Below, piece by piece: positions 23,921-27,302 of a stretch of DNA of 32,848 nt (positions within the stretch are counted from its first letter, which is position 1; the number at the start of each line of letters is the position of its first letter). Location: the NCBI RefSeq assembly GCF_003334315.1, contig NZ_QOWR01000053.1. One strand, 5' to 3'. Below the pieces are notes generated by a model that was not told where the DNA came from, ran no database searches, and saw only the letters and a program-made list of their open reading frames with translations. The DNA is from Escherichia coli (GTDB lineage Bacteria > Pseudomonadota > Gammaproteobacteria > Enterobacterales > Enterobacteriaceae). A program made the position numbers and the translations under genes.

Positions 23921-25060
23921 TTACCAGTTATGAATGTCGCTGGCTGTATCCGTCATGTAACGGACACCGCTAATAGTTGGCAGCAACTGATTGATCAGAC
24001 GGTTCCAGCGGGAAACCGGGGCGGTGGTGACATACACCACGTCATAAGGTTGCAGGCGGAATTCTGTCGCCATCACCAGCGACGTGGCATCGGACATATC
24101 CAGCTGGTAGATATTGGCAATCTTGCCGTTACGCCCGCCCTCGCCTTTCAGCGGACGAATGACAAAGATGCCGCTGGCGTTGGAGGTGGTCATGTCGATG
24201 CCTTCAGCATTGCCCAGGGCTTCGGTCAGGGTCATGCCGCTAAAGTCCATTTTCAGGGTGCTCTGTTTCTTCACTTCACCCATCACAAATACTTTCAGAT
24301 CATCATTACGCGGCACGTAGAGAATATCGCCGGGATAAAGCAGTCGGTTCTGATTGAGGTCGCCGTTTTGCATCAGCGCCTGCAAAGAAATGCGTTCTTC
24401 ACGACCATTGTGTGTTAGCACCACGTTGCGCCAGTCAGCGGTGTCGGTCAGGCCACCTGCGGCGTTGATGGCGTCGAGAATGGTCAGTGGTACGTTGGTG
24501 ATCGCCTGTTGGCCGGATTTATTCACCTGTCCGGAGATATAGGCCTTTTGTGAGCGGAAGGCGGCGATATTAACGTCCACCTGCGGGTCAGCGATGTACG
24601 TCGCTAAGCGCCCGGTAATATCACTGCGGATTTCAGCGAGCGTTTTCCCCACCACGTGAACCTTGCCGATATACGGGTAAAACATAGTGCCGTCAGGCTG
24701 TACCCAGTTGCCGGTGTCGCTGGAGCTGCGGTACTGACCGGCTGGCGTGGTGAGTTCCGGGTGATCCCAGACGGTGACATTAAGAACGTCCCCCGGCCCG
24801 ACGCGATACTGGTAATTCGCGATCTCGCTTTCCAGCGTCATATTGGGGCGCGCTACGTTGGGTCGTGGACGTAATTGATCAATCAGGCGCGGGGTCAACG
24901 GATAAACATTCACCATTTTGTCGAGATCGAAATCAGCGTCCTGCTGTTTGATGACGTCTTTGCCCATCGTCGACATATTGCTGCCCGGAAGTACTGTGCA
25001 ACCGCTTATCAAGGTTACTGACACCAATAATGGCATCAATTTCATTTTGGATTTCATCAT
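23921..25060 (-). CDS. wza: Outer-membrane polysaccharide export lipoprotein Wza
   Basis: 379 aa, lipoprotein signal [21 protein letters not shown]; polysaccharide export (Wza) family; first gene of the colanic acid operon. Confidence 0.95.
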
Positions 25061-25238
25061 TGTTTATTTATCACTTTGGCAGAGTAATTATCCTGTGCAC
25101 TATTAATAGCAATGTCGCCATGCACATTTACCTTGCAGTTAATTGAATAAAAATTTAACTGGCATCAGTCCTAAAAAAATTGATTTCATCCGCAGGCTAT
25201 TGACAGAATAATTCAGACTGGTCTTTCAGGCATCCAGA

Positions 25239-25277
25239 CACGCTACCGCCCCTGGCTTTTTAGCTACCAATACACTG
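25239..25277 (-). promoter_or_regulatory. JUMPstart/ops element in the wza 5' leader (RfaH-dependent antitermination site for the colanic acid operon)
   Basis: cacgctaccgcccctggctttttagctaccaatacactg is near-identical to the element at 873-911 and contains the reverse complement of ops GGCGGTAGCGTG at 25239-25250. Confidence 0.85.
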
Positions 25278-25464
25278 ATTTAGCTTAATTTTTCACACCC
25301 TCTCAGCATACAGTCGTTGATGAGAAAGGGTTATTGCGGAAATTAACTTCCGAATATAAGGTGACATTATGGTAATTGAATATTAGCTCTCCAATAATGT
25401 AGGAGGAAGTGTTACAGCTAACGGAATAGCAGGCAAGGTAACAATTCGGCGATTGGCTATTTTT

Positions 25465-25478
25465 AAGAATTATATTAA
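25465..25478. promoter_or_regulatory. Candidate RcsAB box upstream of the wza promoter
   Basis: taagaattatatta resembles the RcsAB box consensus as I recall it (TaAGaatatTCctA) and lies about 400 bp upstream of the wza start, upstream of the JUMPstart. The match is partial and no matrix scan was done. Confidence 0.35.
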
Positions 25479-25718
25479 GTGTCATTCAATATGGTTTTTA
25501 GGAGTTTCTTTAGGTTGACAATATTTAATATTGCGTCTCAACATGCGATATTTCTTAAATAATGTTTTATCATTACCACTTTTAATTCAGGGATAATGTG
25601 AGGTTATTATCCTCAAATAATATGAGATAAATAGTGCTGCAACATTGCATTTTTGCCCCGATTTATCCATGATCGAATTGTGACATTTGTCATACAACGA
25701 ATAGGTTTTGTACTTACT

Positions 25719-27302
25719 ATGGAATGGATTGCCGATCCGTCTATCTGGGCCGGGTTAATCACGCTGATTGTGATCGAACTGGTCCTCGGCATTGATAACC
25801 TGGTCTTTATTGCCATCCTCGCCGAAAAACTACCGCCGAAGCAGCGCGACCGCGCACGGGTTACCGGGCTGTTGCTGGCGATGTTAATGCGCCTGTTACT
25901 GCTGGCGTCAATCTCCTGGCTGGTCACCCTGACTCAACCGCTATTCAGCTTTCGCTCGTTTACCTTTAGCGCCCGCGACTTAATCATGCTGTTTGGTGGT
26001 TTCTTCTTGTTGTTCAAAGCCACGATGGAGCTGAACGAACGGCTGGAAGGGAAAGACAGCAATAACCCCACGCAACGCAAAGGTGCGAAGTTCTGGGGGG
26101 TGGTGACACAAATTGTGGTACTGGACGCCATCTTCTCACTCGACTCGGTGATTACCGCCGTCGGGATGGTCGACCATTTACTGGTCATGATGGCCGCCGT
26201 GGTTATCGCTATTAGCCTGATGTTGATGGCCAGCAAGCCGTTAACGCAATTTGTTAACAGTCACCCGACCATCGTTATTCTCTGCTTAAGCTTCCTGTTG
26301 ATGATTGGCTTTAGCCTGGTGGCAGAAGGTTTCGGCTTCGTCATTCCGAAAGGCTACCTGTACGCTGCCATTGGTTTCTCGGTGATGATCGAGGCGCTCA
26401 ATCAGTTGGCTATCTTTAACCGGAGACGTTTTCTTTCCGCTAACCAGACGCTGCGCCAGCGGACTACCGAAGCGGTAATGCGCCTGCTTAGCGGGCAAAA
26501 AGAAGATGCGGAACTGGACGCCGAAACCGCGTCCATGCTGGTGGATCATGGTAACCAGCAGATCTTTAATCCGCAGGAACGGCGGATGATTGAGCGGGTA
26601 CTTAATCTTAACCAGCGTACCGTCAGCAGCATTATGACGTCGCGCCACGATATTGAGCATATCGATCTCAACGCGCCGGAAGAAGAAATCCGCCAGTTGC
26701 TGGAGCGAAATCAGCATACGCGGCTGGTGGTTACCGACGGTGATGACGCAGAAGATTTGCTCGGTGTTGTTCACGTTATCGACCTGCTACAACAGTCTCT
26801 GCGCGGCGAACCGCTCAACCTGCGGGTGTTGATTCGCCAGCCGCTGGTGTTCCCGGAAACCTTGCCGTTGTTACCTGCCCTGGAGCAGTTCCGTAATGCC
26901 CGCACGCACTTTGCTTTTGTGGTGGATGAGTTTGGCTCGGTGGAAGGGATTGTGACATTAAGTGACGTCACTGAAACCATTGCCGGTAACTTACCGAACG
27001 AAGTGGAAGAGATCGACGCCCGCCATGATATTCAGAAGAATGCGGACGGTTCCTGGACGGCGAATGGTCATATGCCGCTGGAGGATCTGGTGCAATATGT
27101 GCCGCTGCCGCTGGATGAAAAACGTGAATATCACACCATTGCCGGGCTGTTGATGGAGTATTTGCAGCGTATTCCAAAACCTGGCGAAGAAGTTCAGGTG
27201 GGGGATTATTTGCTTAAAACGTTGCAGGTAGAAAGCCATCGCGTGCAGAAGGTGCAGATTATACCGCTGCGTAAGGATGGCGAGATGGAGTACGAGGTGT
27301 GA
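25719..27302 (+). CDS. yegH: Inner membrane protein YegH (TerC-family membrane domain with CBS pair and CorC/HlyC C-terminal domain)
   Basis: Translation from [39 protein letters not shown] (TerC-like) followed by CBS-type and transporter-associated regions; ATG at 25719. Confidence 0.9.

Follow-up and report, generated by a model that had tools for sequence, protein, structure and literature searches.

The divergent genes wza and yegH of Escherichia coli are separated by an intergenic region that raises two questions: which of its sequences is the RcsAB box for induction of the colanic acid capsule, and is the control region intact? We address both in a stretch of 32,848 bp of E. coli DNA (hereafter the window), in which positions 25061-25718 lie between the two genes. 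Within this gap attention is directed at a 14-bp AT-rich sequence that resembles an RcsAB box and lies close to the predicted wza promoter (hereafter the proximal element), at the published RcsAB box further upstream, and at a third, distal box-like sequence (Table 1).

The wza-yegH region and its K-12 counterpart

The two divergent starts are 658 bp apart, which is the length found in K-12 MG1655 and agrees with the roughly 650 bp given in the initial annotation. The strongly AT-rich leader described there was also recovered: A+T amounts to 65% of the intergenic region, and GC is 0.31-0.40 across the gap versus 0.50-0.60 in the flanking genes. Alignment with the K-12 MG1655 wza upstream region, which had been proposed as a check, yielded 97.9% identity with 14 substitutions, no indels and an unchanged published box. 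Residues 13-379 of Wza are 100% identical to K-12 Wza. The published, proximal and distal boxes, the predicted -35 and -10 hexamers and the JUMPstart are base-for-base the same as in K-12, and 13 of the 14 substitutions fall outside the cross-genus footprints, the exception being a G to A change at 25400. The locus is orthologous to that of K-12 and contains a JUMPstart, in line with its earlier designation as the colanic acid control region. With high confidence we regard 25061-25718 as an intact control region of K-12 type for the colanic-acid (wza-wca) operon. The region itself is already known, and what is mildly new is only its near-invariant proximal element, a putative second Rcs-type operator near -70.

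Of 5426 complete E. coli genomes, 4832 have a match to the gap, and that of O157:H7 TR01 comes nearest with 99.1% identity. The remaining 594 genomes lack a match to 25061-25718, and some of these retain just the yegH-proximal 72 bp; here the colanic acid locus has presumably been replaced or deleted.

Table 1. Features of the wza-yegH region, in window coordinates; positions such as -70 are relative to the predicted wza start.
Feature	Position	Strand	Remarks
wza, first gene of the colanic acid operon	23921..25060	-	379-aa ORF; K-12 annotation
wza/yegH divergent intergenic region	25061..25718	.	658 bp, 35% GC; ORFs and K-12 annotation
wza leader, 3' part, to start codon	25061..25238	-	cross-genus identity 0.72, conserved sequence blocks
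JUMPstart element	25239..25277	-	Rfam RF01707, 57.3 bits, E 4.6e-12; cross-genus identity 0.84
Predicted wza start, 340-nt leader	25400	-	placed from the position of the -10
Predicted extended -10, TGT-AACACT	25408..25416	-	TG and AACAnT invariant in 70 species
Predicted -35 hexamer, TTGCCT	25431..25436	-	near-invariant in 70 aligned species; 17-bp spacer to -10
Proximal element, TAATATAATTCTTA (wza sense), followed by AAAA (25460-25463)	25464..25477	-	centre about -70; cross-genus identity 0.87
Published wza RcsAB box, TAAAGAAACTCCTA	25499..25512	-	centre about -105; exact match to PMC4381331, Table S1
TTGTCAA heptamer, just 5' of the published box	25514..25520	-	near-invariant; mean identity 0.88 over 64 non-Escherichia species
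Distal RcsAB-box-like sequence, TAAGAAATATCGCA	25544..25557	-	about -150; PWM 8.7-10.2 bits; mean cross-genus identity 0.75
Candidate yegH promoter, TTGCAT, 17 bp, CATGAT	25645..25673	+	both hexamers in cross-genus conserved blocks
yegH (TerC family membrane protein)	25719..27302	+	ATG at 25719

RcsAB-box-like sequences upstream of wza

Fang et al. 2015 list 17 distinct RcsAB boxes (PMC4381331, Table S1), and a position weight matrix (PWM) was derived from these sequences. The E. coli wza box is given there as TAAAGAAACTCCTA, and the reference list of that supplement opens with Wehland & Bernhard 2000, followed by Stout 1996. This sequence occurs once in the window, on the minus strand at 25499-25512, is the same in K-12 and has a cross-genus identity of 0.81; it is the wza box assigned by experiment in E. 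coli. The initial annotation had put forward another sequence as a candidate for the RcsAB box that drives capsule induction. Since the published box is 25499-25512, the true box lies elsewhere, 35 bp away on the upstream side in wza sense, and that assignment has to be abandoned. The string on which it was based, taagaattatatta, does exist, but its coordinates of 25465-25478 are one base off, the actual location being 25464-25477.

The proximal element had rightly been called a partial match, as it agrees with TaAGaatatTCctA at 10 of 14 positions. A search of the gap for the consensus TAAGAATATTCCTA with up to 3 mismatches gave no match. The invariant positions T1, A3, G4, T10, C11 and A14 were tested, of which the proximal element keeps five of six in either orientation (C11 is replaced by A on the plus strand, G4 by T on the minus strand). 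PWM scoring, which had been suggested to evaluate the box, gives it 8.9-9.3 bits depending on orientation, below the 10.8-19 bits of the other 16 training sites and near background for a lone match, given that 0.13-0.16 matches of at least 9 bits are expected per dinucleotide shuffle of the region. The proximal element therefore falls short of a full consensus match, has a score outside the range of the known sites and differs from the site published for wza; what it does have is a conserved RcsB half-site, TC(T/C)NA as defined in PMC7913699, upstream of an Rcs-activated promoter. Left out of the matrix, the published wza box reaches just 8.1 bits, the corresponding leave-one-out scores being 9.3 bits for the proximal element and 10.2 bits for the distal box, so the PWM by itself cannot single out the real box among the three. 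As a group they do stand out: three box-like matches of at least 8 bits within 94 bp (25464-25557) compare with 0.21 expected (P about 0.001). A full-text literature search by the sequence of either the published box or the proximal element returned nothing relevant.

Conservation was determined by means of a YegH probe, with which 80 loci were fetched, one genome per species; in 68 of these wza was located divergently upstream. Together with K-12 and the window they form an alignment of 70 intergenic regions from more than 20 genera, including Citrobacter, Salmonella, Enterobacter, Kosakonia, Lelliottia, Kluyvera, Leclercia, Trabulsiella and Buttiauxella. Identity values are the mean match to the window base over the 64 non-Escherichia species.

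The proximal element, with a mean identity of 0.87 between flanks of 0.1-0.3, is among the best-conserved upstream elements. Its spacing is fixed as well: 27 bp separate it from the -35 hexamer in 53 species and 26 bp do so in 13, and 61 of 66 species place it 34-36 bp from the published box. Orthologues of the element keep box-like PWM scores, with means of 9.4-9.9 bits and a range of 4.6-11.3 bits. The near-invariant part reads A-w-T-C-T-T-A-A-A-A and includes TCTTA (25464-25468), near-invariant in the 66 species scored; TCTTAAAA and TTAAT are near-invariant as well. A right half A-w-T-C-y-T-A-A-A-A is common to the proximal and published footprints, in which TCTTA and TCCTA-AAAA have the same orientation. 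This likeness at offset 0 is used descriptively only, because both footprints were anchored on TCyTAAA, which makes the comparison partly circular. The distal box reads TAGGAAATATCGCA in many other genera and is missing from several; in 39 of 66 species the distance from it down to the published box is 45 bp. Judged by its conservation, the proximal element is a functional-looking, near-invariant element that is distinct from the published box. Across Enterobacteriaceae the wza upstream region keeps a fixed three-element architecture, and the published box is not the best conserved of its upstream elements.

What the proximal element may be

When the gap is compared with the 350 bp upstream of K-12 rcsA, the longest common string is the 12-mer TTAATATAATTC, which lies within the proximal element and at rcsA is found 33 bp upstream of the canonical box. 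A common substring of at least 12 arises in 8% of shuffles, which means that the 12-mer alone is not significant; it is suggestive because of its position in both promoters. The E. coli rcsA promoter has two RcsA/B boxes, box1 and box2, and a YdaT site that overlaps box1 (PMC11879457); it is this YdaT site that TTAATATAATTC overlaps. The rcsA promoter thus resembles the wza promoter in that a canonical box, there TAAGGATTATCCGA-AAAA, has TTAATATAATTC about 33 bp away, and both promoters are AT-rich, activated by RcsAB and, going by the literature, silenced by H-NS. They differ in order: the AT-type box lies upstream of the canonical one at rcsA, whereas at wza it is downstream and nearer the promoter. 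The 12-mer emerged from direct string comparison; with the PWM no second strong box was found near the canonical box of either rcsA or yjbE. AAA(A) follows the canonical boxes of the RcsAB-activated rcsA and yjbE and is absent after the repressive flhD box. In K-12 a second ATTATCCTAAAA is found about 140 bp downstream of the yjbE box. A further comparison is provided by the "RcsAAB box" of Yersinia hmsC, where an extra repeated half-site accompanies a 9/14 consensus match, which shows that an Rcs site may work even when it is composite and a weak match (PMC4325325). At hmsC, however, the repeat directly adjoins the match and the promoter is a repressed one, whereas the wza sites are 34-36 bp apart and the promoter is activated.

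Our working interpretation, held tentatively and at somewhat below an even chance, is that the proximal element is a second, promoter-proximal Rcs-type operator, whose RcsB half-site TCTTA is turned toward the promoter just as TCCTA is in the published box. It has to accommodate that one of six invariant positions is broken whichever way the element is read, that the score is below that of all other known sites and that the box order is reversed at rcsA. An explanation that we find doubtful though by no means far-fetched is that the element binds another protein, or has a structural or bending role through which RcsAB at about -105 comes within reach of RNA polymerase; the likeness of the element to an RcsAB box would then be a consequence of AT-richness. 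The single-site PWM score near background fits this, as does the left half TAATAT, which departs from TAAGAA; moreover, many genera show the tandem hexamers CTTAAT-ATTAAT-CTTAAA, unlike an operator of two half-sites, A-tracts follow both boxes, and the unusually conserved spacer of the core promoter hints at further factors. Yet no IHF-like core (WATCAA) was seen by eye on either strand, the stretch that does not vary coincides exactly with the RcsB half-site TCyTA, oriented as in the published box, and the same 12-mer adjoins the canonical box at rcsA. An unlikely extension of the second-operator interpretation is that an AT-type operator TTAATATnAnTCyTA-AAAA is obligatorily paired with a canonical box some 33-36 bp away at both wza and rcsA, a two-site assembly being needed. 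The AT-type box at wza would in that case be class-I-like, at about -70, and near-invariant in more than 20 Enterobacteriaceae genera, and capsule induction would need an assembly of RcsAB/RcsB and not the textbook single box.

Three further explanations are, taken together, quite improbable. That the proximal element is the one RcsAB box for capsule induction, its partial match marking a weakened operator, could appeal to the 10/14 consensus match, to a score of about 9 bits that is similar to that of the left-out published box and to the very strong conservation. This is nevertheless very hard to maintain, with the published wza box a different 14-mer 35 bp further upstream; nor is the element degenerate in this strain, because its sequence is identical in the inducible K-12 and in other Escherichia. 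Equally improbable is that the block around it is the promoter of a divergent or upstream transcript, with TATAAT on the wza strand. This hexamer is present in Escherichia, with TATTAT or TATTAA in other genera, but a conserved -35 at 16-18 bp is absent on both strands, the flanks are variable and a promoter scan is silent there. Moreover, a better conserved -35/TGn/-10 stands at a fixed 26-27 bp downstream, and yegH has promoter-like conserved hexamers of its own (25645-25673). A functionless chance match, for which the 0.13-0.16 matches of at least 9 bits expected in each shuffled AT-rich region might be cited, is scarcely credible in view of a mean identity of 0.87 over 64 non-Escherichia species, flanks of 0.1-0.3 and a fixed spacing to the promoter. 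Should the proximal element bind RcsB or RcsAB, as a second operator would, the single-box model of capsule induction would be incomplete and regulon predictions based on the box would miss such sites.

Promoter, leader and inducibility of the operon

The core block 25438-25408 has a mean identity of 0.85 and, judged by this conservation, would contain a weak, activator-dependent sigma-70 promoter of wza. Each of its hexamers agrees with consensus at three of six positions, complemented by the extended -10, which leaves the promoter below the threshold of a consensus scan. Most other genera carry TGC-AACAAT, with AACAAT in 64 other species; Escherichia alone has a C at the fifth position of the -10, AACACT being a weaker hexamer than AACAAT. 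The 17-bp spacer is conserved nearly as well as the hexamers, which is unusual for a spacer. The single match that the consensus scan did return (TTGGAG, 17 bp, CATAAT; 25393-25366) was rejected because it is not conserved outside Escherichia, its cross-genus identity being 0.33.

The K-12 cps start was reportedly mapped by Stout in 1996 to roughly 340 nt upstream of wza, and the predicted 340-nt leader would agree with that position. At the predicted start, 25400, the window has A where 68 of the 70 aligned sequences have G; a purine here replaces a purine, and little effect is expected. The 60-mer 25386-25445 had no identical copy in the 4809 complete E. coli genomes in which it was sought.

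Between the core block and the JUMPstart the leader (25278-25399) shows a cross-genus identity of 0.33 and is variable in length too. The JUMPstart reported in the initial annotation is present as a full element at 25239-25277 on the minus strand; it matches RF01707 over the full length (1-38) and, at 57.3 bits, exceeds the gathering score of 35. An Rfam match to ARRPOF was dismissed, at 16 bits versus a gathering score of 127. Past the predicted start, positions 25239-25250 of the wza-sense strand hold the ops 12-mer GGCGGTAGCGTG, and ops, GGCGGTAGnnTG, is in the leader's non-template strand. Other long operons under RfaH/ops control (rfa, rfb, kps, hly) likewise carry a JUMPstart, and in the comparison with these no difference was detected for wza, whose long leader includes a 39-nt JUMPstart and, on its non-template strand, the ops 12-mer. 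An RfaH ChIP signal has been found at wza in CFT073 (PMC9765446). Downstream of ops, a search across genera for a consensus RNA structure in the leader found none beyond the JUMPstart hairpin.

These elements suggest the following scheme. In wza sense the order would be the distal box at about -150, the published box at about -105, the proximal element at about -70, the weak promoter and a start at 25400, followed by about 120 nt of unconstrained leader, the JUMPstart/ops (25277-25239) and the conserved leader up to the wza ATG. According to the literature, in which the binding data are from CFT073, H-NS would silence the AT-rich DNA. Phospho-RcsB together with RcsA would bind the upstream box or boxes and activate the weak promoter, as described in the literature for the published box and as we infer for the others. 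RfaH would then load onto RNA polymerase at ops and carry it through the operon of roughly 20 kb, again as known from the literature.

The concern raised in the initial annotation, that a degenerate box might bear on inducibility, is not borne out, as the boxes, the -35 and -10 hexamers and the JUMPstart all equal those of K-12. Because operator, promoter and antitermination element are of the unaltered K-12 type, there is no reason in the sequence to doubt Rcs inducibility, and nothing in it suggests operator decay or lost inducibility in this strain. A false lead on a degenerate operator is thereby removed, and what is left is a point for specialists only.

Many RefSeq E. coli genomes have a 49-aa "hypothetical protein", WP_162829205.1, annotated at the equivalent of 25369-25518 (+). 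This call spans the core wza promoter, the proximal element and the published box, and is probably spurious because regulatory footprints are present within it and their flanks are variable. On the yegH side a conserved inverted repeat, TGACAttTGTCA, is found at 25681-25692 (+), just 5' of the yegH ATG and within a cross-genus conserved block; it looks like an operator for some factor. The motif TGTCAA(T) is near-invariant at two places on the minus strand, beside the published RcsAB box (25514-25520) and in the leader past ops (25199-25205), and resembles a half-site of this inverted repeat.
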